DNA of 64,000 bases. Origin: Dehalococcoidia bacterium (GTDB lineage Bacteria > Chloroflexota > Dehalococcoidia > Bin125). The notes below the pieces were generated by a model. The model was given only the letters and a program-made list of their open reading frames with translations. It searched no databases and was not told the DNA's origin. Both the position numbers and the translations under genes were made by a program. Within the stretch, counting starts at the first letter, position 1, and the number at the start of each line of letters is the position of its first letter. The DNA lies in contig CAXXSR010000001.1 of the NCBI GenBank assembly GCA_963662615.2, forward strand, positions 1,216,001 to 1,280,000. Reading direction: 5' to 3'. Shown piece by piece: positions 21,106-61,449 of the stretch.

Positions 21106-21741
21106 CTACGATGCCGCCGCTACGTCCGCCGTACCGGCCTCCGCTGTGCTCTGGAGCACCTCGTCAATCAGGCCGTAGTCCTTCGCCTGATTGGCGTCCA
21201 GATAGAAGTCCCGGTCCGTGTCCCGCTTGATCACGTCCAGCGGCTGACCGGTGTGCTTCGCTACGATGCGGCGAATGATCTCGTTCTCCCGCAGAATCTC
21301 ACGCGCAGCGATCTCAATGTCGGACGCCTGCCCGCGGGCTCCCCCCAGCGCCTGATGCATATGCATCGTGGAGTTGGGCAGCGCATACCGCTTCCCCCGC
21401 GTCCCAGAGGCGACGATGACGGTCCCGAAGGAGGCCGCCATCCCTACACAGATTGTCGACACTTGGGCGCTGATCAGTTGAATCGTGTCATAAATCGCCA
21501 GGCCGGCGGTAATGGAGCCACCGGGCGAATGAATATACAGCTGGATGTCCCGCTCCGGATCCTCCCGGTCCAGATAGAGCAGTTGCGCCACGATGACGTT
21601 GGCCACCTGGTCATCGATGGGCGTCCCCAAGAAGACAATCCGCTCCCGAAGGAGGAGCGAGTAGATGTCGTAGGCCCGCTCGCCCCGATTGGTGGTCTCC
21701 ACCACCATGGGGATGATCGCCGAGGGATTGACCGGGCTCAT
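21106..21741 (-). CDS. clpP: Clp protease proteolytic subunit
   Basis: [28 protein letters not shown]. Confidence 0.97.
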
Positions 21742-23153
21742 GCCTGTCTCCTTCCTCCACCAGTCTTGTCGGAGGCCGATTCTGAGGGATCTTCCGCGGC
21801 GTCGCCGTCTGCCGCCTCGCCCGCGGATTCGTCGCCCGACGCGGTGTCCACCGCGGGGACGGCGTCACCCCGCGCCCCCACGGCATTCTCCACAGCGATC
21901 TCCCCCAAGCGGTCCAGCGTCGCCCCGGTCAACAGGTTCCGCCGCAGGACGTTCCGGCCGCTTTCGCTGTCGAAAAGCGCACGGACTTGCTCCGCCTGAG
22001 GGCCCGCGCCGGCGACGCTCGCGATCTCGGCATCAATCGCGGCCTCCGCGACCTCAATCTCTTCGTGACGGGCGATCTCGGCAAGGATTAGTCCGCGCAG
22101 GACGCGGGCACTCGCCTGGGGCCGCAGGCTCTCCCGCAGGGCGGCCACGTCTTGCCCCTGCTGGCGGATGTATGCCTCGGCATCTGCGCCAGCCCCGCTC
22201 TGCTGGGCCAGCTCTCGGAGCATCTGATCGATCTCTTGCTCCAACAGTGTGGGCGGGAATTCCACGTTCGCCTGGGCGGTGACCGCATCCAGGAGCGCCT
22301 GGTGGAACCCGTCCCGCGCGCGTCGCTCGGCCGTTGACCGCAGATCGTGAATGACCTGGTCGCGCAAAGCGTCGAACGACTCCAAATCCCCGGCCTCTGC
22401 CGCCAGATCATCGTCCGGTTCCGGCAGGATCTCCCGCTTGATGTCGTGGATGGTCACGAAGAAACGCAGCCGTTTGCCGGCGACGTCGGCGTCGTCCCAA
22501 TCCTCAGGCACGTCGACCTCAAACTCGCGCTCGGGGCCCGTCTCCAGCCCGACGAGCTGCTCGTCGACACCGGGGACGCCGATCGTCATCCCCTCTCGGA
22601 GGCTCAACTCAACCCCCTCCTCCTGGAGGGCGGACTCGCCGTCCACTTCGGCACGGATGTCCAGGCGGAGACGATCGTTGTATTCCACCGGCCGCTCAAC
22701 GGGCTCCAGCACCGCGTGCCGCCGCCGAATCTCCAAGATCGCGTCGGCGATCAGGGCATCCGTCACCTCCACCGGCTCCTTGTCGACGGCGATCGAGCGA
22801 TAATCGCCCAAGTCCACCTCCGGCCGCAGCGGCACGGTGGCCTTAAAGCGGACCGGCTGACGCTCCAGGATCTCCAAATTGGGCGGGCCCAGCGGCTCCA
22901 CCCCCTGCTCCTGCACCGCCTCTTCGTAGACCTGCGGGATCAGCCGTTCGATCGCCTCATCGAAGACGAACTCGGCCCCTAGCGTGCGCTCGACGATGGC
23001 GCGCGGGGCCTTGCCCTTGCGGAAACCGGGGATATCGAAGCGCTGGGCCAGTCGGCGCGACGCCTGGTCCAGCGACTTCTGTACCTGGCCGTCGTCGATC
23101 TCCACCTCGAGGACAAGCTGCGCCTCGGGGACCCGCTCGGCTGTGACTTTCAT
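21738..23153 (-). CDS. tig: Trigger factor
   Basis: [10 protein letters not shown] ribosome-binding motif; tig-clpP-clpX gene order. Confidence 0.95.
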
Positions 23154-23179
23154 GAGGGTGGTGGGGCTCCTGCGGTCCC

Positions 23180-23188
23180 AGTATAGCA
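23180..23188 (-). promoter_or_regulatory. Extended -10 element of tig-clpP-clpX
   Basis: Minus strand TG-c-TATACT, followed by AGGAG and the tig ATG. Confidence 0.6.
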
Positions 23189-23235
23189 GTGCCGTGGCGG
23201 GCCCTTGGGCCCAGGGAATCCGCCAATTCTGGCCG

Positions 23236-24573
23236 CTACCGTCCCCTAGGGTTGACGACGTCGTTGACCGCGTCGCCCACCAGATTGAAAGAGAAGATCA
23301 GCACCGCCACCGTGACGCCCGGCACCAGCAGGAGATGCGGGTGCAGGTTGAAGGTGCTAGAGCCGCCAGCGTCCGCGATCATGGCGCCGAAGGAGGCGGT
23401 GGGCGGCTGAATGCCGAGGCCGAGGAAGGTGAGCCCGACCTCCGCACCCGCCGCGGCCCCCAGCGACGCGCTCACGCCCATGATGATCCAGGGCAGCACG
23501 CCCGGCAGGAGATGGCGGACGAGGATCCGTGGCGTGCCTGCCCCAATGGACTCCGCCGCCAGAATGAACTCCTGTTCCCGCAAGGCGAGCACCTGCGCGC
23601 GCACGAAGCGCGCCGTCAGCACCCACCCCAAGAAGGAAACGGCGACAAATAACAGGCTGATGTGATCGATCCCCTGGTCAATGAGGAAGGTCATGCCGAG
23701 GAAGTCGTCGATGGCGGCGATCCAGTCGGTCCACTGTTCGCGCAAGACAGCGCTGATCACGATCAGAACGAGCAGGCCGGGAATGGCCAGGAAGACGTCA
23801 CCGACGCGCATGATCACGGCGTCAACCCAGCCGCCCCGATACCCCGCCCAAAGTCCCAGCCCCAAGCCAAGGAAGGCATCGCCGAGCAGAAAGGCGAGAA
23901 TGCTGAAGATCAGCGTGGTGCGGGCCGAGAAGAGGGTGCGGCTGAACATGTCGCGGCCGTTGCGGTCGGTGCCGAAGAGGTGGCGCGAGGAGGGCCCTTG
24001 CAGCGTTTCATCCTCGCTGACGACGAGTAAGGTGCCAGCGGGCAGAACCGTCTCCTCGCGGAGGGGACTGAAGCGATCGGAGGGGCCCGGAATCGTGAGG
24101 AGGGTGAGTTCCGGCAGAACGGTCTCCTCCGTGAGCGGGCCGAAGCGATCGGCCACGGTGGGATTGAGCGCCGCGATGACGTCCACCGTGATGCCGTGCC
24201 GGGTGAGGAATGACGCCAGCGGCTCCACTTCCGTGCCCGCGAGCCGGACGGTGTCGCTGGTGCGGCGATTGTTGGCGACGATCTCCTCCAGGGAGGCGTC
24301 GTGGTCCTGGAGGAACGCGCCGATCGTTTCGCCTTCGTCCACGCGGTCGCGCGCGGCGAGATTGTTCGTTGTCGGGTCCTGCAGCCCTGTGGGCGCCCCG
24401 AAGGCGTCCAGCATGGTGTACGACCCCGCCCCATAGATGATGCAGATGAGGATGAGCGAGATCACGGCGAGCCGCTTCCGCAGCAGGCTCCGCAGAGCGC
24501 GCCGCCAGGGCGCCTTCCCGCGCGCCTCGGCCAGAGCGATTTCGATGTCGCCGCTACCGCCGGCGACCGTCAC
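23236..24573 (-). CDS. oppC: Peptide ABC transporter permease OppC/DppC with about 115-aa LysM-like insert
   Basis: HLFGTDRNGRD, EAA loop EFILAAESIGA, RHLLP, FLGLG, FNLVGDA; longer than usual because of an insert at aa ~74-189. Confidence 0.9.
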   Translation of the reverse strand: MTVAGGSGDIEIALAEARGKAPWRRALRSLLRKRLAVISLILICIIYGAGSYTMLDAFGAPTGLQDPTTNNLAARDRVDEGETIGAFLQDHDASLEEIVANNRRTSDTVRLAGTEVEPLASFLTRHGITVDVIAALNPTVADRFGPLTEETVLPELTLLTIPGPSDRFSPLREETVLPAGTLLVVSEDETLQGPSSRHLFGTDRNGRDMFSRTLFSARTTLIFSILAFLLGDAFLGLGLGLWAGYRGGWVDAVIMRVGDVFLAIPGLLVLIVISAVLREQWTDWIAAIDDFLGMTFLIDQGIDHISLLFVAVSFLGWVLTARFVRAQVLALREQEFILAAESIGAGTPRILVRHLLPGVLPWIIMGVSASLGAAAGAEVGLTFLGLGIQPPTASFGAMIADAGGSSTFNLHPHLLLVPGVTVAVLIFSFNLVGDAVNDVVNPRGR

Positions 24574-25556
24574 GAAGGCCTCCGGCCGAAGCGAATCCGG
24601 GGGTCAATGAAGATGTAGAGGATGTCCGTGGCCAAGTTGCCCAGCACGATCAACGTTGAGACAAGCAGAGTGAAGCCAAGCAGGACGTTGAAGTCGCGAT
24701 TGTTGATCGAGCGGAAGAGGAAGCTGCCCACGCCCGGGACGCCGTACAAGGTTTCGACGAAGATCGTGCCGGTGATCACCAAGACGATGCTGAGGACCAC
24801 GAATGTGCTGAGCGGCAGCATGGCGTTGCGGAGGACGTGCCGGTAGATCACCGTGCGCTCGCGCAGCCCTTTGGCTCGGGCCGTGCGGACGTAGTCCTCA
24901 TCCAGCACAGCGAGCACACTGATCCGCACGAAGCGAGCCATCCCCTTCAGCCCAGCCAGGGTCAGCGCGGTGACGGGAATGATGTAGGAGGCGGGGTCAC
25001 CGGGCGTCCAGACGGAGGGGACGGCGAAGCCGAAGAATCGGATCACATCGTCAAGCACGAAGATGGGCAGCCAGATCAGCAGCGGCATCAGCACCACCAC
25101 CGGGATGGCGTCGAAGACCATGAGGACGCCGATCGTAAAGGGGTCTTTCCATCTGCCCCGATTGAGCGCGGCGTACACCCCCAGGGGGATGCCGATTAGA
25201 TAGGTGAGCGCGAGCGAGATGAGGCCGATCTGGGCAGAGATCCAGATGCGCTCGCCGAGCAGTTCCTGAACAGACCGTTGAGGGCTGCGAAAGAAATACG
25301 AAGGGCCCAGGTCGCCCTCCGTGATCAGGTTCTTGGTGTAGCGGCCGAAGCGCTCGAAGAAGCCGCCCTTGAGCCCGAACTCCTCACGGATCGAGTCCGC
25401 GATCTCAGGGTCGGGCGTGCGCGTACCGGTGATGATGCGAACCGGATCCCCGGGGGCGAACTGGGTGAAGGCGAAGGTGATGAAGAGAACAGCGAAGAGA
25501 ATCAGCGGAACGAGCAGTAGCCGCCGCACGATGATGGGGAGCAGCCCGCCGGCCAC
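24570..25556 (-). CDS. oppB: Peptide ABC transporter permease OppB/DppB
   Basis: APGDP, GDLGPS, EDYVRTARAKGL, HVLRNA, IDPRIR. Confidence 0.93.
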   Translation of the reverse strand: MAGGLLPIIVRRLLLVPLILFAVLFITFAFTQFAPGDPVRIITGTRTPDPEIADSIREEFGLKGGFFERFGRYTKNLITEGDLGPSYFFRSPQRSVQELLGERIWISAQIGLISLALTYLIGIPLGVYAALNRGRWKDPFTIGVLMVFDAIPVVVLMPLLIWLPIFVLDDVIRFFGFAVPSVWTPGDPASYIIPVTALTLAGLKGMARFVRISVLAVLDEDYVRTARAKGLRERTVIYRHVLRNAMLPLSTFVVLSIVLVITGTIFVETLYGVPGVGSFLFRSINNRDFNVLLGFTLLVSTLIVLGNLATDILYIFIDPRIRFGRRPS

Positions 25557-25599
25557 CGCAGTCGCCCTCTCAGACCAGCCACCGACCCCCGCGTGAGCG

Positions 25600-27426
25600 C
25601 TAGTCGCTCAGGGTGATGAAGCGCAGGTAGGGGATCACCGAGCGCGGGGGAACGTAACCCTGCACGTACGGCTTCACCACTTCGTTCTTCTGCCCGTGGA
25701 AGAGCAGGAGCCAAGGCGCGTCGTCCACGATGATCCGCTCCACCTGGCGGTAAATCTCGATCCGCCGTTGCGGGTCTTGCTCTACTCGCGCTTGCTCCAG
25801 CAGCGTGTTGACTTCCGCATTGTCGTATGCGGGATTGTTCTGCAGCGAGCGGCCGTGGAAGAGCAGATCCAGGAAGTTTTCCGGATCGGGATAGTCGGCG
25901 CTCCAGCCCAGGCTGAACGCCTGGTAGAGCCCACGGTCCAGCTCAGAGAAGAAGGAGGCCGTTTCCACCTGCTGGATCTCGACCGCCAGCCCGAGATTCT
26001 GCTGCCACATATCCCGGACCGCCTCGATCAGCGCTCCGGGGGTCGCCCCCGCGCCCGAGACGGTCAGGCGGATGCGATCCAGCAGGGGGCTCCCCGCGTA
26101 GCTGGAGCCATCGAGCAGCGCCTTGGCTTGCGTCGGGTCGAAGGGCAGCCCGCGGAAGTCTGGGTCGTAGCCCGGCATGCCCGGGGGCAGGATCCCTTCC
26201 GCCACCACCACGACGTTCTGGAAGGTGATTTCAATAATCGCGCCCTTGTCGACTGCCATGGAGAAGGCCCGCCGCACGTCGCGGTCGTCGAAGGGGGGCT
26301 GATTGACGTTGAAGCCGATGTAGAACGTACTCAACTCGCTGCGGCTGACGAATTCGGCGTTGAGGGTCGAAGCCGGGTCCCTTGCCCGCTCAATGTCGTT
26401 GATGCCGATACCGGCAATATCCACCTCTTCGTTCTCATACTGCGTCAGCCCGCCACCCGCGAAGCGGATGCGGACCTCCTCAAGCTGTGCGGGGCCCAGG
26501 TGGTAGCGGTCCCAGGGAACCAGCGTCAGCCCTTCCCCCAACTCCCAGTTTCTCAACTGGAACGGGCCGGTCCCGATCGGGTCACGCGCCCAGCCTTCGG
26601 GATCGCGCTCCACCTGGTCGCGGTAGAGCACGTAGGCGGTGGGATAGGTGAGCTTCTGCAGGAAGTAGGGCTTGGGCTCGTCGATGGTGATCTCAACGGT
26701 GCGATCGTTGATCACCTGAATACCCGTGACTTCGGTCACGCCGCTGCGGCCGCGCGCGTAGTCCTTCAGCCCCACGATGTCGCCCAGATAGTCAATCGCC
26801 GTGGGCGAGAAGGTGTCCGGGGAGGCGTTGCGCTCAATGCTCCACTTCACGTCCTCCGCGCTGACGCGCGTGCTGCCGTCGTGGTAGAGAGCGTCGGGAC
26901 GGATCACGAACCGGTAGGTGACCGTGCCGTCCGCATTGAAGATCAGCTCCGGGATCTCCTCGGCGAGGTCCGCCACCACGTTGAGGTCCTGGTCCAGGGT
27001 GACGAGCCCGCCGAAGATCTCCACGACGTACTCGGCGGAGGTCACGTCGGTCGTCAGAGCCGGATCGAGCGTCAGCGGCTCTCCGCGGGCGAGCCGCAGC
27101 ACCCCGCTTTCGCGAACGGCCGGCGCCGCCCGCGCGGGTTCTTCCTCTGCACCAGCCGGCGCAGGGGGGGCCACCCCGTTCGCTTCCGCCGGCGCCTCCG
27201 CCGGAGCATCCGCCGGAGCCGCCGCTCCCTCCGCGTCTTCAGCGCGGTCCGCGCGCTCACCGCGCTCGGAGCGGGAATCGGACGTCTCGCTGTCCCCGTC
27301 TGAGTCGTCGCCGCCCCCACCGCAGGCCGCCGCGACCACCGCTACGACGAGCAGGAGGCTGAAGAGGCCCAGCCCCAGGCGGGCCCAATGTCGATCGGTT
27401 CGGAGTTCTCGCCCCAGGACGCTCAT
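25600..27426 (-). CDS. oppA: Peptide/nickel ABC substrate-binding lipoprotein (SBP family 5)
   Basis: AAACGG lipobox, TLDPA, PIGTGPF, PFDDRDVRRA, WSADYPDP. Confidence 0.92.
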   Translation of the reverse strand: MSVLGRELRTDRHWARLGLGLFSLLLVVAVVAAACGGGGDDSDGDSETSDSRSERGERADRAEDAEGAAAPADAPAEAPAEANGVAPPAPAGAEEEPARAAPAVRESGVLRLARGEPLTLDPALTTDVTSAEYVVEIFGGLVTLDQDLNVVADLAEEIPELIFNADGTVTYRFVIRPDALYHDGSTRVSAEDVKWSIERNASPDTFSPTAIDYLGDIVGLKDYARGRSGVTEVTGIQVINDRTVEITIDEPKPYFLQKLTYPTAYVLYRDQVERDPEGWARDPIGTGPFQLRNWELGEGLTLVPWDRYHLGPAQLEEVRIRFAGGGLTQYENEEVDIAGIGINDIERARDPASTLNAEFVSRSELSTFYIGFNVNQPPFDDRDVRRAFSMAVDKGAIIEITFQNVVVVAEGILPPGMPGYDPDFRGLPFDPTQAKALLDGSSYAGSPLLDRIRLTVSGAGATPGALIEAVRDMWQQNLGLAVEIQQVETASFFSELDRGLYQAFSLGWSADYPDPENFLDLLFHGRSLQNNPAYDNAEVNTLLEQARVEQDPQRRIEIYRQVERIIVDDAPWLLLFHGQKNEVVKPYVQGYVPPRSVIPYLRFITLSD

Positions 27427-27490
27427 GCCTCTCCCTCGCTCCCTGCGCCGCGCCGCCTCCAGCCGTCGCGCGTCCGCCCGGTCGCGGTGT

Positions 27491-27499
27491 AGGTTATCA
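27491..27499 (-). promoter_or_regulatory. Extended -10 element upstream of oppA
   Basis: Minus strand TG-a-TAACCT. Confidence 0.5.
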
Positions 27500-27539
27500 C
27501 CGCTACGGGTGAGCCGGCCGGATCACGCCCCGCCTCGAT

Positions 27540-29345
27540 CTAGGAACGGTCGGCGCCGGCGGGCGGTTTTCGTACCATCAGCCCTATTTCCGCCAACTGC
27601 TCCGGCGACACCGGCGCGGGTGCCCCCGTAAGCGGGTCGGTGGCCGACTGGGTCTTCGGGAAGGCGATCACCTCACGAATGTTCTCCCGCCCCGCCAGCA
27701 GCATGGCCAGGCGGTCCAGCCCCACGGCGAAGCCGCCATGGGGAGGCGCGCCGTACTCGAACGCCTCCAGCATGTGCCCGAAGCGGGCCTGCGCCTCCGC
27801 CGGGCTGATGCCCAAGAGCGCAAAAAGACGCTCCTGCAACTCGCGCCGGTAAATCCGGATCGATCCGGACCCCAGTTCGAAACCGTTGGCGACGGTGTCG
27901 TAGGCGCGCGCGAGCACCCGACCCGGATCGCTCTCTAGGTAGGGAAGGTCCTCCTCCCGCGGCGCCGTGAACGGATGGTGGAGCGCGTCCCATCGGCCCT
28001 CATCCTCGATCCACTCCAGGAGCGGGAAATCCGTGATGAAGGCGAGGTGGAGCATGCCCGGGTCGGCCAGATTGAGCCGACGGGCGATCTCGCGGCGTAG
28101 CCCGTCAAGAACCGTGTTCACCACCTTCTCGCTGTCGGCCGCCAGCAGGACCATGTCGCCTGCCTGGGCGTCGCAGCGCTGGCCAATGGCACGAGACGCC
28201 TCCAGTCCCAGATGGCGCAGCATGGGGGCGCGGAGGTCGTCCGCTGTGGCACCGGCCGGCGCCGCGGCGTATTGGATGGAGACTAGGCCCTTCGCGCCCA
28301 TGGTCTTGGCCAGGTCGGTGAGCCCGTCCACTTGCCGGCGAGTTAGCTCCGCGCCGCCCGGGTAAACGACGGCGCGCACCCGTCCGCCGCTCTCCACGGC
28401 CCCGCGAAAGACGCCGAACGCGCTCTCCCGGACCAGATCCGAACAGTCGACCAGCTCCAGCCCGTAGCGGAGGTCGGGCTTATCCGTGCCGAACCGGGTC
28501 ATGGCCTCCACATAGGAGAGCCGCGGGAAGGGCGAAACCAGGCGCATGTCCGGACGCAGTTCGGCGACCAGGCCGGTGAAGAGCTCCTCCAACAGGCCCA
28601 GGACGTCGTCTTCATTGCAGAAGGAAAGCTCCAGGTCCAGCTGCGTGAATTCAGGCTGGCGATCGGCGCGGAGGTCCTCGTCGCGCATGCAGCGGGCGAT
28701 CTGGAAGTACCGCTCCAACCCCGCCACCATCAGCAGCTGCTTGAGCTGCTGCGGCGATTGCGGGAGGGCGTAGAAGGAGCCGGGGTGGAGACGGCTGGGG
28801 ACCAGGTAGTCGCGCGCGCCCTCCGGCGTCGCCGCCACCAGCATGGGCGTCTCCACCTCCAGAAAGCCGCGCTCCGACATGAACGTGCGGATGTGCTGAT
28901 TCATCCGATGCCGCAGCACCAGCGTCCGCAGCATCTCGGGCCGACGCAGATCGATGTAGCGGTGCCGGAGACGGACGATTTCGTCAACTTCGGTCTCTTC
29001 ATTCACGGGGAAGGGCGGTGTCTTGGCGGGATTGAGCACCTCAACGTCGGTCGCCACGACCTCCACTTCGCCGGTGGCCAGGTTGGGGTTCAGCGCTTCC
29101 GGCGCGCGCAACTCGACAGTGCCGGCGACGCGCAACACATACTCGCTGCGGACCGTGGCGGCAAGCTCGTAGGCGCGCTGGTTCCGCTCTGGATGCAGGA
29201 CGATCTGCACGACGCCCGCTCTGTCGCGCAGGTCGATGAAGATGACGCCGCCGTGGTCGCGCCGTCGGTGGACCCAGCCGGCCAGAGAGACATCGGTCCC
29301 AGCGTGTTCGCGTCGCAGGTCGCCGCAGTTGTGGCTCTTGAGCAC
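27540..29345 (-). CDS. aspS: Aspartate--tRNA ligase (probably non-discriminating)
   Basis: RRRDHGG..FIDLRD, TPEGARDYLVP, LPQSPQ, DRQPEFTQLD, GAPPHGG; GGAGG before GTG 29345. Confidence 0.97.
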   Translation of the reverse strand: MLKSHNCGDLRREHAGTDVSLAGWVHRRRDHGGVIFIDLRDRAGVVQIVLHPERNQRAYELAATVRSEYVLRVAGTVELRAPEALNPNLATGEVEVVATDVEVLNPAKTPPFPVNEETEVDEIVRLRHRYIDLRRPEMLRTLVLRHRMNQHIRTFMSERGFLEVETPMLVAATPEGARDYLVPSRLHPGSFYALPQSPQQLKQLLMVAGLERYFQIARCMRDEDLRADRQPEFTQLDLELSFCNEDDVLGLLEELFTGLVAELRPDMRLVSPFPRLSYVEAMTRFGTDKPDLRYGLELVDCSDLVRESAFGVFRGAVESGGRVRAVVYPGGAELTRRQVDGLTDLAKTMGAKGLVSIQYAAAPAGATADDLRAPMLRHLGLEASRAIGQRCDAQAGDMVLLAADSEKVVNTVLDGLRREIARRLNLADPGMLHLAFITDFPLLEWIEDEGRWDALHHPFTAPREEDLPYLESDPGRVLARAYDTVANGFELGSGSIRIYRRELQERLFALLGISPAEAQARFGHMLEAFEYGAPPHGGFAVGLDRLAMLLAGRENIREVIAFPKTQSATDPLTGAPAPVSPEQLAEIGLMVRKPPAGADRS

Positions 29346-29464
29346 TGTGGCCTCCACAGCAGCGCAGGGATGGCGGAAAGGGAGTGCGCCTTCAACTCTT
29401 ACATGCGGCCCGATCGCGATCAAACGTCGCGGCCTGAGCCCGGGTCGGCGGTACACTGACGGCG

Positions 29465-30751
29465 ATGCCTGCCTCTGGATCCGGTCGCAAGGCCACGCCG
29501 ATCGCCATGGACATGAGGCCGCCCGTCAGCCTCTACCTGCACGTCCCGTTCTGCACCGTCAAGTGCGGCTACTGCGACTTCAACTCCTACGCCAGCCTGG
29601 AGGAGCAGATTCCCGCCTGGGAGACCGCCTTGCAAGAGGAGCTGAGTCGCTGGGCCCCAGCCGTGGCCGGACGGCCTGTGGCCACGCTCTTCTTCGGCGG
29701 GGGGACGCCCAGCCTTCTGGACGGCGACGCGGTGGCGCGGATCATGGCGACGGTCCGCTCCCTCTACGCCCTGGACCCGGAGGCTGAAATCACGTTGGAG
29801 GCGAACCCAGAGAGCGTGCGACGGGAGCGGTTGCTGGGATACCGGGCGGCGGGCGTGAATCGTCTGTCGATGGGTGTGCAATCGCTCGACACGGTCGAGC
29901 TGCGCTTCCTGGACCGCGCGCATGACGCTGAACAGGCCCGGACCGCCTTCACGCTGGCCCGCGACGCCGGCTTCGACAACGTCAATGCGGACCTGATCTT
30001 CGGCCTGCCGGAGCAATCGCTGGACGGTTGGCAGCGGTCGCTGGAGGGCGTGCTCGCCTGGGGTCCGGACCACCTCTCGTGCTACGCCCTCACCGTGGAG
30101 GAAGGGACGCCGCTGGCGTGGCGCGTGGCCCGCGGTGAGGTAACGGAGTCGGACCCGGACCTGCTGGCGGCCATGACCGACTGGACCGAGGAGCGGCTCG
30201 GGCAGGCGGGGTATCGCCAATACGAGATCAGCAACTTCGCCCGGCCGGGGCGCGAGTGCCGCCACAACCTCGTCTACTGGCGGCACCAGGAATACGTGGC
30301 GGTGGGCCCGGGCGCCCATGGCTTCGTCGACGGCGTCCGCTACAGCGTGGAGCGGAGCCCCGCGCGGTACATCCAGGCGCTCACAAGGGAACCCGCTCGT
30401 CCTGAGCCTGTCGAAAGGCGCGCTGCCGCTGAATCCGTTCGTCCTGAGCTTGTCGAAGGGCGCGCGGCCTTGGACCTGCCCTCGCCCGCCGCGGTCTCCC
30501 GCGAGGACGTCACGCCAGGGACCGCCGCCATCGATGCCGCCGTGATGGGGCTGCGCCTGAACGATGGCATCGACGAGGGCGAGTTCGCATCGGCGCACGG
30601 CGAGCACTGGGCCGGGCTGCGCCCGGGCCTTGAGTGGGGCATCGATGCGGGGCTGCTGGAACGCGGCGACGGCCGCCTGCGCCTGACCCGTCGCGGCCGG
30701 CGGCTCGCCAACGAAGTCTTTGTGCGCCTGCTGGAGCCGTCGCTGGTGTGA
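29465..30751 (+). CDS. hemW: Radical SAM heme chaperone HemW (HemN-like) with short repeat insert
   Basis: LYLHVPFCTVKCGYCDFNS, GGGTPS, EANP, YEISNFA, HNLVYW. Confidence 0.92.
   Translation: MPASGSGRKATPIAMDMRPPVSLYLHVPFCTVKCGYCDFNSYASLEEQIPAWETALQEELSRWAPAVAGRPVATLFFGGGTPSLLDGDAVARIMATVRSLYALDPEAEITLEANPESVRRERLLGYRAAGVNRLSMGVQSLDTVELRFLDRAHDAEQARTAFTLARDAGFDNVNADLIFGLPEQSLDGWQRSLEGVLAWGPDHLSCYALTVEEGTPLAWRVARGEVTESDPDLLAAMTDWTEERLGQAGYRQYEISNFARPGRECRHNLVYWRHQEYVAVGPGAHGFVDGVRYSVERSPARYIQALTREPARPEPVERRAAAESVRPELVEGRAALDLPSPAAVSREDVTPGTAAIDAAVMGLRLNDGIDEGEFASAHGEHWAGLRPGLEWGIDAGLLERGDGRLRLTRRGRRLANEVFVRLLEPSLV
30393..30465 (+). repeat. Two direct copies of a 31-nt REP-like unit inside hemW
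   Basis: ccgctcgtcctgagcctgtcgaaaggcgcgc (30393) and ccgttcgtcctgagcttgtcgaagggcgcgc (30435), 42 nt apart. Confidence 0.85.
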
Positions 30752-30760
30752 GGAGATGCC

Positions 30761-31090
30761 GTGGCCTACGACGAAGCGCTGGCCCAGCGCGTGCGCGCAC
30801 TGCTCGCAGACGACTCAACAATCGCCGAGCGAAAGATGTTCGGCGGCCTGGCCTTCATGCTGCGGGGCAACATGTGCTGCGGCGTCCAAAACGACGAGCT
30901 GATGGTGCGGGTAGGGCCCGAGGCGTACGACGATGCCGTGGCCCGGCCTCACGCCCGTGAGATGGACTTCACCGGCCGACCGCTTAGAGGCCTCGTCTAC
31001 GTCTCAGCGGCGGGGCTGCGGACGCGAAAGGCGCTCGTCACCTGGGTGGAGCGGGGCGTGCGTTACGCCACCTCCCTGCCGGCGAAGTAG
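30761..31090 (+). CDS. TfoX N-terminal domain protein
   Basis: MAYDEALAQRVR, ERKMFGGLAFM..GNMCCG, MDFTGRP..G.VYV; AGGAG RBS. Confidence 0.88.
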   Translation: MAYDEALAQRVRALLADDSTIAERKMFGGLAFMLRGNMCCGVQNDELMVRVGPEAYDDAVARPHAREMDFTGRPLRGLVYVSAAGLRTRKALVTWVERGVRYATSLPAK

Positions 31091-31144
31091 GGGGACAGGG
31101 ATGACTGAACGTAGTCGAGGTCGCCGCTTTCGAGCCATTCGTCC

Positions 31145-32131
31145 TCACCCACCCGCCACGTCCAGCACGATCTTGCCAAAGTTCCGATTCGCCTCCATGT
31201 ACCGATGCGCCTCGGCCGCCTCCCGCAGCGGGAAGACCCGGTCGATGACGGGGCGCATGCGGCCGTCGGCGAGGGCGGGCTCAAGGTGCTCCTGGTAGTC
31301 GCGGGTGAGGGCGGCGCGCTCCGACAACGGTCGCGCTCGCAGAACCGATCCGAAGACCTGCAAACGACGCCGCAGGAGTGCGCTCAGGTCGACCTCCGTC
31401 GTGGCGCCGCCCAATAACGCGATCAGCACCAGCCGGCCGCCCGTCGCCAGCGAGGCGATGTTGCGCGGCCAGTAGCCCGCACCCACCACGTCGAGGATGA
31501 CGTCCACGCCTCGGCCGTCCGTCCCCGTGCGGACCTCCTCCGCGAAGTCCTGCGTCTTGTAATTGATCGCGACATCCGCGCCCAGGTCGCGCGCCTTCGC
31601 GCACTTCTCCTCGCTGCCGGCCGTGATCCAGGCCTCCCCGCCGATCAGCTTCACGATCTGGATCGCCGCCGTGCCCACGCCGCTGCCGCCGGCATGGATC
31701 AGCGCCCGCTCGCCCGGCTGCAGCCGCCCCAGCGTGCGGATGGCGATGTTCGCCGTAAAAAAGACCTCCGGCAGCGCGGCGGCCTGCTGGTAGTCGAATG
31801 CGTCCGGAATCGGCATCGCCAGCGACTCGTCAATCGTCGCCAGTTCGGCGTACCCACCCCCGCCGCTGAGGCCGTAGACCCGGTCGCCCAGCCGGAACCG
31901 CGTCACGCCTCCACCGACCGCCGCCACATCGCCGGCCAGTTCCAAGCCCAGGATGGCGGACGTGCCCGGTGGCGGCGGATAGCTGCCCTGCCGCTGGAGG
32001 ACGTCGGCCCGGTTGACGGCGCTGGCGTGCACCCGCACCAGCACCTCGCCGTCGCCGACGACGGGGTCCGGCGCGGCGGCAGGGCGAAGCACGCTCGCGT
32101 CTCCGGGCTCGTCGATGACGATCGCTTTCAC
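31145..32131 (-). CDS. NAD(P)H-quinone oxidoreductase (PIG3-like MDR family)
   Basis: VNRADVLQRQGSYPPPPG, HAGGSGVG, NFGKIVL; GTGA-coupled to the HDAC gene. Confidence 0.92.
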   Translation of the reverse strand: MKAIVIDEPGDASVLRPAAAPDPVVGDGEVLVRVHASAVNRADVLQRQGSYPPPPGTSAILGLELAGDVAAVGGGVTRFRLGDRVYGLSGGGGYAELATIDESLAMPIPDAFDYQQAAALPEVFFTANIAIRTLGRLQPGERALIHAGGSGVGTAAIQIVKLIGGEAWITAGSEEKCAKARDLGADVAINYKTQDFAEEVRTGTDGRGVDVILDVVGAGYWPRNIASLATGGRLVLIALLGGATTEVDLSALLRRRLQVFGSVLRARPLSERAALTRDYQEHLEPALADGRMRPVIDRVFPLREAAEAHRYMEANRNFGKIVLDVAGG

Positions 32132-33192
32132 GCGCCCTCCTCCAGTGCATGGATCTTCCGCGCCTTCGCGATAAGCGGCTCGACGTCCGGCGCGCCGCCG
32201 TCGGGCGGCGGGCCCACGGGATCCTCCACCGCGGCGTTGCCCAGGAGCACGTCGACGCAGTGCCGCGCTGCCCACGCGATCGCCTCCAGGTCGTAGCCGC
32301 CCTCCAGGACGTAGACCGTGCCTGCGCCCAGCTCGGCGCCGACGTCCCGCAGCCGCTCCGCGATGGCGCGATAGCCGGGCCCGCTCAGGTTCTCCATCGC
32401 CAGGGGGTCGCGCCAGTGGGCGTCGAAGCCGGCTGACACGAGGATCAGTTCCGGCTTGAAGCGTTGCAGCGCCGGCAGGATCACGGCGTCGAAGCAGCGG
32501 AGGTACTCGGCGTCGCCGCAACCGGCGGGAAGCGGGAGATTTAGCGTCGCGCCCTCCGCGCTGCCGCTGCCCGTGTCCTCCAACTGACCGGTGCCCGGGT
32601 AGTGTGGGAACTGGTGCGTACTGACGTAGAGGACGTCCGCATCGGCGTAGAAGATGTCCTGCGTGCCGTTGCCGTGGTGGACGTCGAAATCGACGATGGC
32701 GACGCGCTCCGCCATGCTCGCGGCGCGAACTTGCGCGGCCGCGACCGCCACGTTGTTGAGCAGGCAGAAGCCCATCGCCCGCTCTCGCGTTGCGTGGTGG
32801 CCGGGCGGCCGCACGAGACAGAACGTCGCCTCCAGCTCCCCCGTCGCGACGAGCACCGCCGCCCGCACGACGCCGCCGGCCGCGAGCCGCGCGGCCCTGA
32901 GGGAGTGCTCCGTCATGACGGTGTCGGGGTCCAGGAAGACGGGCCGTTCGCTCGCCTCTCGCTCGGCCGCCGCGAGCAGCGCCAGCAGGCGGGAGTCGTG
33001 CACCCGTCGGAGCGCCTCGTCCGCCGCCACCTCCGGCTCGATGGCCGCCATGCGGGAGGCGACGCCGCTCTCGTCCAGGAGCGCTTCGATCGCCCGCAGG
33101 CGCTCGGGGCGTTCCGGGTGACTCGACGTCGTCTCGTGATCCTGGAAGCGGCGGTCGCGCAGGAGGCCCACATTCGTCGTCCGCGGCGCCAT
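32128..33192 (-). CDS. Zn-dependent histone-deacetylase-family amidohydrolase
   Basis: HPERPER, RPPGHH, GFC, DFDVHHGNGTQ, SAGFDAH, LEGGY. Confidence 0.95.
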   Translation of the reverse strand: MAPRTTNVGLLRDRRFQDHETTSSHPERPERLRAIEALLDESGVASRMAAIEPEVAADEALRRVHDSRLLALLAAAEREASERPVFLDPDTVMTEHSLRAARLAAGGVVRAAVLVATGELEATFCLVRPPGHHATRERAMGFCLLNNVAVAAAQVRAASMAERVAIVDFDVHHGNGTQDIFYADADVLYVSTHQFPHYPGTGQLEDTGSGSAEGATLNLPLPAGCGDAEYLRCFDAVILPALQRFKPELILVSAGFDAHWRDPLAMENLSGPGYRAIAERLRDVGAELGAGTVYVLEGGYDLEAIAWAARHCVDVLLGNAAVEDPVGPPPDGGAPDVEPLIAKARKIHALEEGA

Positions 33193-33229
33193 GCCGGCGA
33201 TGCTACCACCTGCTGATATCCTGCCCTCG
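33193..33229. promoter_or_regulatory. Divergent pair of extended -10 leaderless promoters
   Basis: Plus strand: TG-a-TATCCT-7nt-ATG (selB). Minus strand: TG-g-TAGCAT-7nt-ATG (HDAC). Confidence 0.75.
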
Positions 33230-35101
33230 ATGTACGTCATCGGCACGGCCGGGCACGTCGATCACGGCAAGAGCCGCCTGGTGCTGGCCCTGACCGGCAT
33301 CGACCCCGACCGCCTCCGCGAGGAGAAGGAGCGCGGCCTCACCATCGACCTTGGCTTCGCCTGGTTCGATCTCCCCAGCGGCCGCGAGGTCAGCATCGTC
33401 GACGTGCCCGGCCACGAACGCTTCATCAAGAACATGCTCGCCGGCGTGGGCGGGATCGATCTGGCGCTGTTCGTCGTGGCGGCGGACGAAGGCGTCATGC
33501 CCCAAACGCGCGAGCATCTGGCCATCCTCGACCTGCTGCAAGTCAGGCAGGGCGTGGTGGCGCTGACGAAGAGCGACTTGGTCGACGAGGACTGGCTGGA
33601 GCTCGTCACGGCCGACGTCGAGGAGCTGTTGACGGAGACGTCGTTGGTTGGCGCGCCCGTCGTACCATGCTCGGCCGTGAGCGGCGACGGCTTGGATGCG
33701 CTTCGCACCGCCCTCGACGGGGCGCTGGACGGGCTGCCCCCGGTGCGGGACGTCGGCCGCCCTCGACTACCGGTGGACCGTGTCTTCACCATCACCGGCT
33801 TCGGCACCGTCGTCACCGGCACCCTCATCGACGGCAGTCTGCACGTGAGCGATCAGGTGGCGATTGAGCCGGGAGGACGGTTGGCCCGCATCCGCGGTCT
33901 GCAAAACCACCAGAAGAAGGTGGAGGCGTCGCAACCCGGCACGCGCACCGCGATCAATTTGAGCGGCATCGCGCCGGAGGAGCTTGACCGCGGGGTGGTC
34001 GTGACCACGCCCGGCTGGCTCCAGCCGACGCGGGCAGTGGACGTGCGCCTGCGGGCACTCGCCTCGCTCCCGCGGTCAATCAAGCACAACGCTTCCGTCA
34101 CGGCCCACACGGGCGCCGCCGAGGTCCCGGCGCGGGTGCGCCTTCTTGAGGGCGAGGCGCTGGAGCCGGGCCATGAGGCCTGGGCGCAGCTGCGGCTCGA
34201 CCAGCCCGTGGCCGTCGCGCGCGGTGATTTCTTCGTCATTCGCAACAGCGTCACGACGATGGGCGGGGGCCGCGTCGTCGACACCCGGCCCCGCCGCCAC
34301 AAGCGCAATGAAGCGGAGACGCTGGCGGCGCTGGGCCGGCTGCTCGAGGGCAGCCCGGACGACACCGTTCTGACCGTGCTCCAGCGCCTGGAGCCGGCGT
34401 CCCTGGCCGACGTTCGACGCCGCGCGGAACTTGACGACCGGGTCGCGCGCGAGGCCGTCGAGCGCCAGGTCGATGAGGGCGCCATCGTCGTCTTGGACGA
34501 GGGCGGTCTGAGCGACGGCAGCGTGCTCACCACCGCCGCCGGCGTGGAGGGACTCGGCGCCAAAGCCGTGGCGTACACGTCGGAGTTCGTCAGCGAGCAT
34601 CCCCTCCGCAGGGGGATTGCCAAAGAAGAGCTGCGCAGCCGTCTGGGCCTCCCGGCGAAGGCCTTCAGCGCCTTGGAGCGCCGCCTGGTCGCCGAGGGAC
34701 GCCTGGCCGCCCACCAGGGCGCGCTGGACCTGCCCGACCGGCACGTCACCCTGACGGTGGAGCAGCAGAGCGCCGCGGACCAGCTCGTGGAGCGATTGAA
34801 GGCCGCCGGGCGCAGGCCGGAATCGACGGGCCGCGTCGACCCGGAGCTGGCGACCTACCTGGAAGCGCAAGGGTCAATCGTGCGGCTGGGGGACGGGGTC
34901 TATCTTGAAGCCGGCACGCGCGCCGCCATGGCGGATGACGTCGTGTCGGCCCTGCGCGAGCGCGAGAAGATCACGCTGGCGGAGGTCCGCGACCTTCTGG
35001 GCACGAGCCGCAAGATCGCCCAGGCCTTGCTGGAGGACCTGGACCAGCGCCGCGTCACCCGTCGCGTCGGCGACGCCCGCGTCCTGCGGGGCGCCGGCTA
35101 G
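33230..35101 (+). CDS. selB: Selenocysteine-specific elongation factor
   Basis: GTAGHVDHGKS, EEKERGLTIDLGF, DVPGHERF, C-terminal winged helices ending GTSRK..LEDLD..TRRVGDAR. Confidence 0.96.
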   Translation: MYVIGTAGHVDHGKSRLVLALTGIDPDRLREEKERGLTIDLGFAWFDLPSGREVSIVDVPGHERFIKNMLAGVGGIDLALFVVAADEGVMPQTREHLAILDLLQVRQGVVALTKSDLVDEDWLELVTADVEELLTETSLVGAPVVPCSAVSGDGLDALRTALDGALDGLPPVRDVGRPRLPVDRVFTITGFGTVVTGTLIDGSLHVSDQVAIEPGGRLARIRGLQNHQKKVEASQPGTRTAINLSGIAPEELDRGVVVTTPGWLQPTRAVDVRLRALASLPRSIKHNASVTAHTGAAEVPARVRLLEGEALEPGHEAWAQLRLDQPVAVARGDFFVIRNSVTTMGGGRVVDTRPRRHKRNEAETLAALGRLLEGSPDDTVLTVLQRLEPASLADVRRRAELDDRVAREAVERQVDEGAIVVLDEGGLSDGSVLTTAAGVEGLGAKAVAYTSEFVSEHPLRRGIAKEELRSRLGLPAKAFSALERRLVAEGRLAAHQGALDLPDRHVTLTVEQQSAADQLVERLKAAGRRPESTGRVDPELATYLEAQGSIVRLGDGVYLEAGTRAAMADDVVSALREREKITLAEVRDLLGTSRKIAQALLEDLDQRRVTRRVGDARVLRGAG

Positions 35102-36290
35102 GGCGCGACCCGGCCGGCTGCCGACGTCTGCCAAAGCGACGCTGGATGGACCCTTCCTCCCACAGCACGACGATCTGCGCGGCCACGGCGATGGACGAGT
35201 AGGTGCCGGCGATCGCGCCCACCAGCAGCACCAGGACGAGGGGCCGCACCGTCACGCCGCCAATCAGCATCAGCGCCACCAGCGCCAGGATCAGGGTGAT
35301 GGACGTGTTCAGCGAGCGCCCCAGCGACTGCGTGATCGCGGCGTTCACCGTGGGCCGCAGGCGGGAGCCGGGGTCTTGCAGCTGGTTCTCGCGGATGCGG
35401 TCGAATACCACGATGGTGTCGTTGACGCTGTAGCCGATGATCGCCAGCAGGCCCGTCACGAACATCGCGTTGACTTCCACCTCCGCCACCTGCCCCAGGA
35501 TCGAGAACACCCCCACGACGATAGTGATGTCGTGCAGCAGCGCGACGATGGCGGCCGCGCCGTACAGCAGCGGATTGGGCAGGCGCCGGAACGCCAGGCT
35601 GATGTAGATCAGGATCGCCACGGCCGCGATGCTCAAGGCGATGCCGGCGTCCTTCGCGATCTCGCTGCTCAGGATCCCAGACACTGTCGCCGACTGCAGC
35701 ACGAAAATCGGCCCGACCTCCGTCCGCAGGGCCTCGGCAATCTCCGGCCGCAGGGCCTCGGCAATCTCTGGCCGCAGCGCCTCCGAATCCCCGTCGTCTG
35801 GCACCTGGGCGCGCAGCTTGAACGTCGATTCGCCGGTCGCTTGAATGCGCGCATCCCCCAGGCCGATGCCGCGGAGGGCGTCGCGGACGTCGTCCTGCGA
35901 CACGTCGGCCGGGAACCAGACTTCCAGTTCAACGCCGTCCTCCCCAACGTCCGAGTCCACGGTCTGAATCTCCCCGACGTTCGCTTCAAGGGCCGCCTGC
36001 ACATCGTCCAACGGGGGGCCGGCGCCTTCCGCGTCAGGCTGGCCAACGCGCACCACGAAGGTCGCGTCCTCGGTCGCCTCCACGGCCACGTCGTCAAACC
36101 CGGCCCCGCGGACGGCGCCCGCGACGTCCTCTTCCGTCACGTCGTTGAGAAAGCGCGCCTCCAGCTCGATCCCGCCCTCGAAGTCGATGCCGGGATCGAG
36201 CTGCCAGATCGACAGCGCCACGAGGCAGGGCACGAGCAGCCCGAGCGAGATGAGAGCGAAATACCGCCGCAAGCCGACGAAGTTGATCAT
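35055..36290 (-). CDS. secF: Protein translocase subunit SecF with duplicated extracytoplasmic domain
   Basis: GIDFEGG, ALLHD, GYSVNDTIVVFDRIREN, RSLNTS, GTYSSI. Confidence 0.95.
   Translation of the reverse strand: MINFVGLRRYFALISLGLLVPCLVALSIWQLDPGIDFEGGIELEARFLNDVTEEDVAGAVRGAGFDDVAVEATEDATFVVRVGQPDAEGAGPPLDDVQAALEANVGEIQTVDSDVGEDGVELEVWFPADVSQDDVRDALRGIGLGDARIQATGESTFKLRAQVPDDGDSEALRPEIAEALRPEIAEALRTEVGPIFVLQSATVSGILSSEIAKDAGIALSIAAVAILIYISLAFRRLPNPLLYGAAAIVALLHDITIVVGVFSILGQVAEVEVNAMFVTGLLAIIGYSVNDTIVVFDRIRENQLQDPGSRLRPTVNAAITQSLGRSLNTSITLILALVALMLIGGVTVRPLVLVLLVGAIAGTYSSIAVAAQIVVLWEEGSIQRRFGRRRQPAGSRPSRRPAGRGRRRRDG
35724..35783 (-). repeat. 24-nt in-frame tandem repeat (2.5 copies) in secF
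   Basis: ccgcagggcctcggcaatctc(c/t)gg x2 plus a partial copy; encodes EALRPEIA repeats. Confidence 0.9.
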
Positions 36291-38035
36291 CGGTCGCCGC
36301 CTCTGGAACCGGCGGCCGGCTCCGCGCTCCGGCGCGGCCGCCCCGGGGTGGGCGCGTCGTCCTCCGGCATCTCGCGGATGCCGAAGAGCCAGGGCCTGCG
36401 GGCGAGACCGAGGCCCACGGTGAGATTGAGGAACGTGCGCGTCACGAAGATGGCGGTGACCATGCTGAACACGGTCCCCACGAAGAGAGCGATGGCGAAG
36501 GACTTGATCAAGTTGGCGTTGAGCTGGTCGGCAAAGAACCAGAGGATGCCCACCGTGATCAGGGTGGAGACGTTGGCGTCGCGAATGGCGGGCCAGGCGC
36601 GACTCCAGCCGACCTCAATGGCCCCCTGCAGCCCGCGGCCCAAGCGCAGCTCCTCCTTCATGCGCTCGAAAATGAGGATGTTGGCGTCGACCGCCAGCCC
36701 CACCGCGAGCACGAAGCCGGCGATCCCGGCCAGGGTCAGCGTGATGGGCACCAGCTTGAATGTGGCCATCACGACAGAGGCGTACACGATCAGCGCCAAC
36801 GCCGCCATCACCCCGGGCAGCCGGTAATAGAGGACCATGAACAGCGTGATGGCCAGATAGGCCACCAGTCCCGCCTGAACGGTGTCAATCACCGAGTCCT
36901 CGCCCAAGGTGGCGGCGACTTCCGTCTGCTGGATGGTCTGGAAGTTGATCGGCAGTGCCCCGGCGCGGAGTTGGCGGCGCAGAGTGCGCGCCTCCTGGTC
37001 GCTGATGCCGGTAATGATGCCCCGATCGCTGATCACCGCCTGCACCCGCGGCTGGCTGATCAGTAGGCGGTCCACGAAGATGCCCAGCGGGGCCTGATTC
37101 ACAGCGAGACGCTCCGTGAGCTGCTCAAACAGGCGCGCGCCCTCGCTGTCGAACTCGAACGAGAGCGCCGTCTGCCCGCTCTGGTCGATGGTGCGGGAAA
37201 TCGAGTCCGCGATGAGGAAGTCGCCCGTGAGCTGCACCTCCTCCCCCCGGCGGTCGCGGGCGCGGGCCGGAATCCAGCGAACGCCGTCAACCACGATGAC
37301 GTCCTCCGTGGCGTCCCCCAGCGGGAATTCGGCGAGACGCGGCGTCTCGGTATCCAGCGGCTCGATCAGCTGCGGATCGAAGGCGTCCTCCAGCGTCTGC
37401 TCAACGGCGAACGGATCAACGGGTGGCGGCACGAAGCGAAAGAACGGATCGATCTCGCGAAACTCCAGCAGGGCTGTGGAGCCCACCAGGTCGGCCGCTT
37501 CTTCCGCGGTGACGCCGGGGATCTGCGCGCTGATGCGAGTGTCGCCCACGGTCGTGACTTCCGCCTCCGACACGCCGAAGCCGCTCACGCGCTCCGCGAT
37601 GATGTCGCGCGCCTCGGCGATCGCCTCGTTCAAGTCCTCGCCTTCGATGTCCAGCGGCAGGACGAGGCTCTGAATGGTGTCTGGAAGCGGGCGGTCGATC
37701 TCCTCCGGACCCAAGTCCTCCAGCTCCGGGTTGAGATCCAGCAAAGTGGGGATGTCCACACGGTTGCGCTGTGCGAACGCCTCCAGGACCTCCCCGCGCC
37801 GCACCTGCGCCGACTTGCCGGAGGCCTCCAACGTGACGGAGACGCCGCCGGCCAGGTCCAAGCCCAGGCGGAACTCGTCCCGGTCGAAGTTGCCGATATT
37901 CAGTCCGCCGCCGCCGGGCCAGGGGATGAAATCGGGCAGGTACTTATCCGGGTTCCCCGGCCAGGTCACGAACATGCTGAAGCCCGTCACCACGAGGATG
38001 GCGAGCAGCGCGATCTGGTTCTTTCGTCTATGCAC
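36287..38035 (-). CDS. secD: Protein translocase subunit SecD with LysM-like insert
   Basis: LGLDLAGG, GVSE, AGALP, ATLG, AVDANILIFERMKEE, IRDAN. Confidence 0.95.
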   Translation of the reverse strand: MHRRKNQIALLAILVVTGFSMFVTWPGNPDKYLPDFIPWPGGGGLNIGNFDRDEFRLGLDLAGGVSVTLEASGKSAQVRRGEVLEAFAQRNRVDIPTLLDLNPELEDLGPEEIDRPLPDTIQSLVLPLDIEGEDLNEAIAEARDIIAERVSGFGVSEAEVTTVGDTRISAQIPGVTAEEAADLVGSTALLEFREIDPFFRFVPPPVDPFAVEQTLEDAFDPQLIEPLDTETPRLAEFPLGDATEDVIVVDGVRWIPARARDRRGEEVQLTGDFLIADSISRTIDQSGQTALSFEFDSEGARLFEQLTERLAVNQAPLGIFVDRLLISQPRVQAVISDRGIITGISDQEARTLRRQLRAGALPINFQTIQQTEVAATLGEDSVIDTVQAGLVAYLAITLFMVLYYRLPGVMAALALIVYASVVMATFKLVPITLTLAGIAGFVLAVGLAVDANILIFERMKEELRLGRGLQGAIEVGWSRAWPAIRDANVSTLITVGILWFFADQLNANLIKSFAIALFVGTVFSMVTAIFVTRTFLNLTVGLGLARRPWLFGIREMPEDDAPTPGRPRRSAEPAAGSRGGDR

Positions 38036-45847: not shown

Positions 45848-46282
45848 ATGGCCTTCCGGGGCACGTTCGACCATTCCCTCGACGATCGGGGGCGCCTCGC
45901 CGTCCCGGCTCGCTACCGCGACGCCTTCACGGCCGGCGGAGTGCTCGCGCCCAGTCCCGATGGCTGTCTGGAACTGTATCCGGTGGAGGAGTTCGAGAAC
46001 ACCGCCAACCAGTTGACGGCGGCGGGCGCCAATCTCCAACGGGGCCGACGCCTCCGCCGTGGCCTCTACGCCCGCTCGTGGGAGGTGGACCTGGACCGGC
46101 AGGGGCGCATCCTGATCCCGCAACCGCTGCGGGAGGGGGCGAATCTCGCCGGCTCCGTGGTCCTGGCGGGCCGGCGCGAGTGCCTGGAGATCTGGAGCCG
46201 GGAGCGCTGGCAGCAGGAGCTCGGCATCGTCGAGCGGGAGTACGCAACAAACCTGGAAGCGCAGGAGCTTCAGTGGCAATGA
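45848..46282 (+). CDS. mraZ: Division/cell wall cluster repressor MraZ
   Basis: FRGTFDHSLDDRGRLAVPA, DRQGRILIP, LEIWS. Confidence 0.95.
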   Translation: MAFRGTFDHSLDDRGRLAVPARYRDAFTAGGVLAPSPDGCLELYPVEEFENTANQLTAAGANLQRGRRLRRGLYARSWEVDLDRQGRILIPQPLREGANLAGSVVLAGRRECLEIWSRERWQQELGIVEREYATNLEAQELQWQ

Positions 46283-47627: not shown

Positions 47628-47681
47628 GCGCGCCGCCGGCGTGGGCCGGGCGAACTGTGCGGACGTGCAGAACGAGGAGCC

Positions 47682-52002: not shown

Positions 52003-52028
52003 CGGGTTCGCGGAGGTGAAGAGCCGTG

Positions 52029-54708: not shown

Positions 54709-54751
54709 TGGGCGGCGTCTGTCGGGGTGTGCAGGCTGCGGAGGGCCTGGA

Positions 54752-61357: not shown

Positions 61358-61449
61358 GGGGGAATCTCCGCTCGACCGCCGAGGTGCCGGCCGAGCGGTT
61401 CAATGTCCACGCACCCATCTGGTGGTGGGGGAGAAGGGAAGGAAACCGG

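Follow-up and report, generated by a model that had tools for sequence, protein, structure and literature searches.

The window analysed here is a 64,000-nucleotide stretch of the genome of a Dehalococcoidia bacterium (2.66 Mb in two contigs), covering positions 1,216,001 to 1,280,000 of contig CAXXSR010000001.1 and having a G+C content of 64–72% when measured in 2-kb steps. It encodes two unrelated housekeeping membrane proteins, the export protein SecD and an OppC/DppC-type ATP-binding cassette (ABC) permease, each of which carries an inserted segment resembling the LysM domain in what is predicted to be an outward-facing part of the protein (Table 1). A first-pass annotation of this DNA had remarked on LysM-like inserts in both proteins. 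We confirm that observation, and the two inserts prove to be related to each other as well.

The secD open reading frame (ORF) scores 319.5 bits against TIGR01129, above the cut-off of 244.4 bits, and contains the P1 and membrane domains (PF21760, PF22599 and PF02355). The NCBIfam profile covers residues 57–536 with about 83 extra residues, 57 of which constitute the insert. It is flanked by the GG-motif strand and the SecD_1st helix and sits in the loop that follows the first strand of P1. The first-pass annotation had placed both inserts just after the first transmembrane helix (TM1), which is right for OppC but not for SecD, where the insert sits about 50 residues past TM1 and inside P1. 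SecDF of Thermus thermophilus (PDB 3AQP) and other SecDs share the domain order and the membrane domain of the window protein, and the host parts align with an E-value of 1e-45; in the T. thermophilus protein, however, the first P1 strand runs directly into the next helix, at the place where the window SecD has its 57 additional residues. An alignment with SecDs from other Chloroflexota (14 were taken and two left out because of a wrong reading frame) likewise finds the segment absent from all 12 correctly framed sequences, in which only a few residues separate strand from helix. A second variable stretch, residues 197–265 (window 37241–37447, minus strand), lies between SecD_1st and the P1 head and is absent or different in other Chloroflexota SecDs. 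Mean pairwise identity amounts to 52% in the insert, 68–93% in the core domains, 43% in the second variable stretch and 34% in the unconstrained tail.

The permease ORF matches PF00528 (the BPD_transp_1 core, E 3.8e-31) and PF12911 (the OppC_N first helix, E 8.2e-06). Its best NCBIfam match, Opp4C, reaches 220.9 bits and so falls below the cut-off of 350; since no NCBIfam equivalog is matched at its cut-off, we call the protein OppC-type at the level of the family, which takes in peptide, nickel or opine substrates. TM1 ends at about residue 55 and the permease core starts at about residue 190. The insert begins roughly 20 residues past TM1 and occupies the first outward loop with parts in the order A-A-B-B, that is, two strand–helix–helix parts followed by two loop–strand parts. 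Alignment to orthologues with a single unit reveals two extra segments in the window protein and brings its tail into register with their last strand; most orthologues have the single unit, and the A-A-B-B order occurs in the window protein and one relative. Unit 1 forms two helices in the AlphaFold2 (AF2) model, at low confidence. By direct reading, both SecD and OppC have a positively charged N-terminus ahead of TM1, and this, together with the known topology of the two families, indicates that the inserts face outward.

Table 1. Features discussed in the text. Coordinates are window positions except in the last row, which lies outside the window.
Feature	Position	Strand	Extent	Basis or remark
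secD, host of the first insert	36287-38035	-	582 aa	TIGR01129; Pfam SecD_1st, SecDF_P1_head, SecD_SecF_C
LysM-like long-loop insert in SecD P1 domain	37646-37816	-	residues 74-130 (57 residues)	
OppC/DppC-type ABC permease, host of the second insert	23236-24573	-	445 aa	PF00528, PF12911
Whole OppC insert, first outward loop	24007-24351	-	residues 75-189 (115 residues)	Alignment with single-unit orthologues
OppC unit 1, strand-helix-helix only	24250-24351	-	residues 75-108	Insert HMM at about residues 77-102, independent E-value 0.15
OppC unit 2, complete long-loop LysM-like unit	24085-24249	-	residues 109-163	Insert HMM, independent E-value 1.6e-16
OppC tail, second copy of long loop and last strand	24007-24084	-	residues 164-189	Repeats the end of unit 2
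oppB-type permease	24570-25556	-		PF00528 and PF19300; same operon as OppC
Family-5 solute-binding protein	25600-27426	-		PF00496; same operon as OppC
secF, partner of SecD	35055-36290	-	411 aa	PF02355, E 1.5e-49, match begins at residue 195
Lipoprotein with two canonical LysM domains	7700-8323	+		PF01476, E 8e-26, two stretches; lipobox LVGC
mraZ-ftsI-mur-ftsW-murG-murC-murB-ddl-ftsQAZ cluster	45848-62529	+		Pfam matches
RseP-type M50 site-2 protease	G000:C1:338699-340888; L144:700-2889	-		Two PDZ and two LysM domains

Several comparisons identify the inserts as derivatives of LysM. When the excised segments were compared with Pfam at a permissive threshold, LysM (PF01476) was the sole family matched, with 16.5 bits and an E-value of 0.0085 for the SecD insert (model positions 2–29 of 43) and 13.7 bits and 0.061 for the OppC insert (positions 14–29 of 43). 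With this genome's 24 LysM domains as targets, hhalign gave a probability of 95.9% for the SecD insert and 94.3% for unit 2 of the OppC insert, and it matched the two inserts to each other at 97%; reversed alignments and 30 column shuffles, run as controls, stayed at or below 4.3% (at most 1.6% for the SecD insert), with scores of at most 14.5 against 35–50 for the real pairs. A hidden Markov model (HMM) of the insert, searched over all six-frame ORFs of the genome, retrieved SecD (E 1.6e-25) and OppC (2.4e-21), then a 908-residue M23 peptidase with multiple LysM domains (7.4e-8) and after it ordinary LysM proteins, and the SecD insert used alone as query also matches a canonical multi-LysM peptidase. 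An insert profile of 27 rows, run against 1.84 billion proteins, produced 1319 matches at E ≤ 0.001; when 30 among the best 150 of these were scanned with Pfam, 26 were canonical LysM proteins, two were SecDs, one was an OppC and one, without a family, was a frameshifted SecD fragment.

For the SecD insert, AF2 gives a model with a predicted local distance difference test score (pLDDT) of 87.6 and the order strand–helix–helix–short helix–strand. A Foldseek search of the PDB lists 15 rows up to rank 18, every one of them LysM-bearing (probability up to 0.99, TM-scores 0.52–0.62), and the top structural matches are canonical LysM domains (PF01476/CBM50) from peptidoglycan hydrolases, for instance those of E. 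faecalis AtlA, MltD, T. thermophilus NlpC/P60 and B. subtilis YkuD. The structural case rests on this consistency of LysM entries at the top of the lists. For unit 2 of OppC, LysM chains superpose on model residues 60–118 or thereabouts (root-mean-square deviation 1.8–2.0 Å over 45–48 residues, Z 3.0–3.7), which for a low-confidence model is suggestive only of a strand–helix–helix–strand fold.

The inserts share with canonical LysM this arrangement of strands and helices, the G-[DE]-[ST]-L and L-N motifs, profile homology and an extracytoplasmic location, and yet they form a distinct type. Their version of the first motif is G-E-[ST]-L in place of G-D-[ST]-L, helix 2 ends in L-N as usual, and an F replaces the canonical I-A pair of helix 1. 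Four residues are invariant in both hosts: E9 of G-E-x-L, R17 in helix 1, N29 of L-N and L44 before the last strand. The loop joining helix 2 to strand 2 is about 9 residues longer in both inserts than in canonical LysM, the extra part being a predicted short helix. From the N of L-N to the last strand there are about 20–21 residues in the inserts as against about 12 in the canonical LysM domains of this genome, so that the first-pass annotation was correct in describing LNP followed by an unusually long loop. LysM repeats usually stand at the ends of secreted wall enzymes. In contrast to canonical domains strung in this manner, the inserts are nested within polytopic membrane proteins, and they also differ in scoring below the Pfam threshold and in having E for D and F for I-A. 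The nearest counterparts of the long loop are LysM repeats in two proteins from another family of the class (L127 from genome G229 and L128 from G169), which likewise have L-N-P and an extended loop but keep the canonical G-D-T-L and I-A; the two proteins are of another kind than the insert hosts, and the long-loop domain is one among the several repeats they have. By direct reading these proteins, of 585–651 residues, appear to join a cytochrome c motif at the N-terminus with several LysM repeats and a cupredoxin-like C-terminus; going by those domain labels, they could be wall-held electron carriers.

Each insert is confined, among the genomes and proteins searched, to one family of the class Dehalococcoidia, which bears out an earlier suggestion that it is specific to a lineage. 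Word-indexed searches found 13 SecDs and six OppCs with inserts. The SecD insert is present in 23 of 24 genomes of the family (the single miss, G010, is 84% complete and lies in 440 contigs); all of the 16 genomes that represented 16 other families lack it. By profile search it occurs in all 17 family genomes and the OppC unit in 16 of them; OppC orthologues that we read directly in five further genera, including the genus missed by the profile, have one unit in every case. Elsewhere in the Chloroflexota none of 80 SecD loci has the insert, and neither SecD nor OppC carries an insert in any of the 283 genomes searched from the rest of the class. Weak matches were obtained in seven of these 283 genomes, and all seven read as ordinary or long-loop LysM repeats in other proteins.

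The first-pass annotation had proposed looking for other hosts with an insert HMM. No further host of a long-loop unit came to light in these searches. In this genome the HMM search over all six-frame ORFs gave none; the other 11 LysM-bearing ORFs of the genome encode two M23 peptidases, one protein in which LysM is joined to a staphylococcal nuclease (SNase) domain and LysM-only proteins, and none is a polytopic machine. The SNase–LysM protein is encoded at G000:C1:70610-71764 (L167). A profile search that covered longer proteins in a set of 5.8 billion, and in which the 8000 candidates sharing most words were scored, returned 77 matches (57 SecD, four OppC and 16 ordinary LysM proteins), with no further host among them. 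Nor was one found in the best 150 of the 1319 matches from 1.84 billion proteins, which are mostly multi-LysM proteins and would hide a single-insert host with a lower score.

We built a tree from 22 SecD units, 12 OppC units, 23 of the genome's own LysM domains (excluding one that contains a stop codon) and, in addition, a single long-loop LysM belonging to another family. The inserts group by host, a comparison that the first-pass annotation had called for, with the SecD units in one clade (support 94/94) and the OppC units in another (93/71). Together they are separated from the genome's own LysM domains (91/82), and the long-loop LysM of the L127/L128 type is sister to the insert clade. 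On this sequence evidence the SecD insert is the closest relative of the OppC insert and vice versa, and the two in the window are 26% identical. One graft probably seeded the other, or the class may already have had a long-loop LysM from which both derive. Pairing between its first and last strands brings the two ends of LysM close together, so such a domain could drop into a host loop and leave the host fold undisturbed. We are confident of the LysM identity of the inserts taken jointly with a history of one acquisition per host before the family diversified, followed by vertical inheritance. Local duplications came after grafting. One is the A-A-B-B arrangement of the window OppC, and another is the tandem pair of LysM-like units in the SecD of one genus (g2; L022, L024; P0174–P0177, P0183, P0027). 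Two tandem units occur in six SecDs among the 77 profile-search matches, and each tandem copy clusters with the matching copy of the sister genome, showing that the duplication is older than their split.

A third machine with LysM domains lies elsewhere in the genome, in line with the repeated grafting onto unrelated membrane machines that the first-pass annotation proposed. This is an RseP-type protease, first seen as a sub-threshold LysM match, which has a PF02163 score of 177 bits, two PDZ domains, an HExxH motif read as HELGH and a LysM score of 28.7 bits (cut-off 20.9). Its LysM pair is nested in the outward-facing part of the protein and is present in 17 of 17 family genomes; the combination of M50, PDZ and two LysM-like units was also read at two loci from one other family of the class. 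As in SecD and OppC, the host is a polytopic membrane protein, the domains lie within its outward-facing part and the arrangement is fixed in the family. Unlike the inserts, however, they have a loop of normal length, pass the Pfam cut-off as a pair, occur in more families of the class and are not retrieved by the insert HMM. Judged from domain matches and alignments, at least three membrane machines that are unrelated to one another have received LysM grafts in this lineage: SecD, OppC and RseP.

A co-occurrence of the inserts with mur genes had also been anticipated. With murG taken as the marker of peptidoglycan synthesis, it holds in so far as murG is present in this genome and in all 17 family genomes searched, but not in the opposite direction: murG was found in 125 of 301 genomes (a tally that includes one unpublished genome), and 107 murG-bearing genomes outside the family are without the SecD and OppC inserts. 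For a query made from the RseP LysM domains, whose matches count LysM in any protein, 30 families were itemised. The 13 families without a murG match (62 genomes) also had no match to this query. Leaving aside the family of the window, 16 of the families have murG, and 12 of these did match the query.

The surroundings of the two hosts contain further genes that deserve mention. The genes for the binding protein, OppB and OppC are directly followed by that for trigger factor, and within this region (window 21738–27426) no ABC ATPase genes adjoin the two permease genes. The secF product is unusually long. Its extra part looks like a pair of similar stretches, each some 40 residues long, and a short tandem repeat (EALRPEIA, repeated) immediately precedes the membrane domain; we considered SecF as a possible LysM host and rejected it, since the extra part, by direct reading, resembles a repeated P4-type segment. 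A gene for a SelB-type selenocysteine elongation factor (33191–35101, plus strand) is located between a deacetylase gene and secF. The LysM lipoprotein and the peptidoglycan gene cluster named in the first-pass annotation are both real, the latter running from mraZ to ftsZ with mur genes. The cluster has only three ORFs of the Mur-ligase type (49676–51043, 52026–53480 and 55825–57219), so that one of murE and murF may lie elsewhere.

LysM binds GlcNAc-X-GlcNAc (GlcNAc, N-acetylglucosamine) in a groove formed by two elements, the loop from strand 1 to helix 1 and the loop from helix 2 to strand 2 (PMC4083421). The inserts keep the first of these and lengthen the second. The reading we favour, with a probability of roughly 0.55 as a whole, is that they are LysM-descended grafts that bind wall glycan; the predicted wall-binding function taken by itself is close to an even bet. 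The ligand would most likely be GlcNAc-containing glycan, either peptidoglycan strands or fragments, met directly above the membrane, and by binding it the inserts would keep or place SecDF and the permease at the wall, or else report on the status of the wall. The two LysM domains of RseP would do likewise, and the altered loop of the inserts may change the ligand that is bound.

A number of observations count against this reading. Both inserts fall short of the Pfam gathering threshold for LysM (20.9 bits). The Foldseek E-values, 0.07–0.4, are as weak as is to be expected for about 50 residues, and like the VIA Z-scores, which do not exceed 3.9, they are not significant singly; the model of the OppC loop is poor (pLDDT 48.7). 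The clade that unites SecD and OppC units is drawn from 57 columns and has moderate support. The co-occurrence with murG is weak evidence because the inserts mark one lineage and hence one event. As to function, the residues added to the groove-forming helix 2–strand 2 loop mean that canonical binding may have been lost or changed, and the modules stand on short linkers near the membrane, from which reach to the mature sacculus is not assured.

The most serious alternative, which we nevertheless think unlikely, accepts descent from LysM and holds that the inserts no longer bind sugar, serving instead as tolerated or structural spacers or as surfaces for protein–protein contact on the outer face. 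It would account for the sub-threshold Pfam scores, the change of canonical D to E and of the helix-1 I-A pair to F, the nine or so extra residues in the groove-forming loop and the conservation of the insert below that of the host cores. It also fits the SecD site itself, which elsewhere is a short loop and which in the window protein has the second variable insert nearby. Against loss of binding stand the four residues that are invariant across two different hosts, the retention of the inserts in every genus examined, a record of repeated duplication rather than loss, and the presence in the same lineage of a third machine, RseP, whose LysM domains do exceed the Pfam threshold.

A mobile LysM cassette that moves between the outer loops of membrane proteins, as raised in the first-pass annotation, appears very improbable. 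One could point to the closest-relative inserts in two unrelated hosts only 13 kb apart, and to the local duplication of units. However, the SecD inserts form one clade and the OppC inserts another, and both are found across every genus of the family examined, a pattern that indicates old vertical grafts and not a cassette on the move; the low identity between the two inserts of the window and the want of any further host in this genome, among the 77 matches from 5.8 billion proteins or in the best 150 from 1.84 billion also speak against mobility. Least credible of all is a resemblance to LysM by chance or by convergence of a small strand–helix–helix–strand unit, for while the single-domain statistics are weak (the Pfam E-values, and a Foldseek E-value of 0.07 at best), the reverse profile search brings up LysM proteins in bulk, the reversed and shuffled hhalign controls fail, the next best matches in the genome are LysM proteins and the SecD insert on its own finds a canonical multi-LysM peptidase.

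The favoured reading of wall-glycan binding could be carried further, although we consider the extension doubtful. Nested LysM domains might wire three machines to the state of the wall, namely SecDF in export, the peptide-type ABC importer and RseP in signalling, with the long-loop subtype recognising a ligand other than mature peptidoglycan, such as glycan that is nascent or not cross-linked, or muropeptides set free from the wall. The cell could then site or gate export, regulated proteolysis and the uptake of peptides derived from the wall where the wall is being made or turned over.

We found no architecture with LysM inside SecD, OppC or RseP in literature titles and abstract openings. 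The LysM domain and its general role are well known, and what is new is the long-loop subtype together with its nesting in such machines. In this family, a distinct long-loop LysM is nested in the working outer parts of housekeeping machines and is kept family-wide. If the inserts do not bind glycan, they would be a clear instance in which a fold for sugar binding has been put to new use as a structural insert. If they do bind wall glycan, they would provide a simple and testable case of a single-membrane bacterium that couples its secretion and transport complexes to the wall, and would also show that the base of SecD P1 tolerates a whole inserted domain. Either way, the inserts are a lineage marker of the family.

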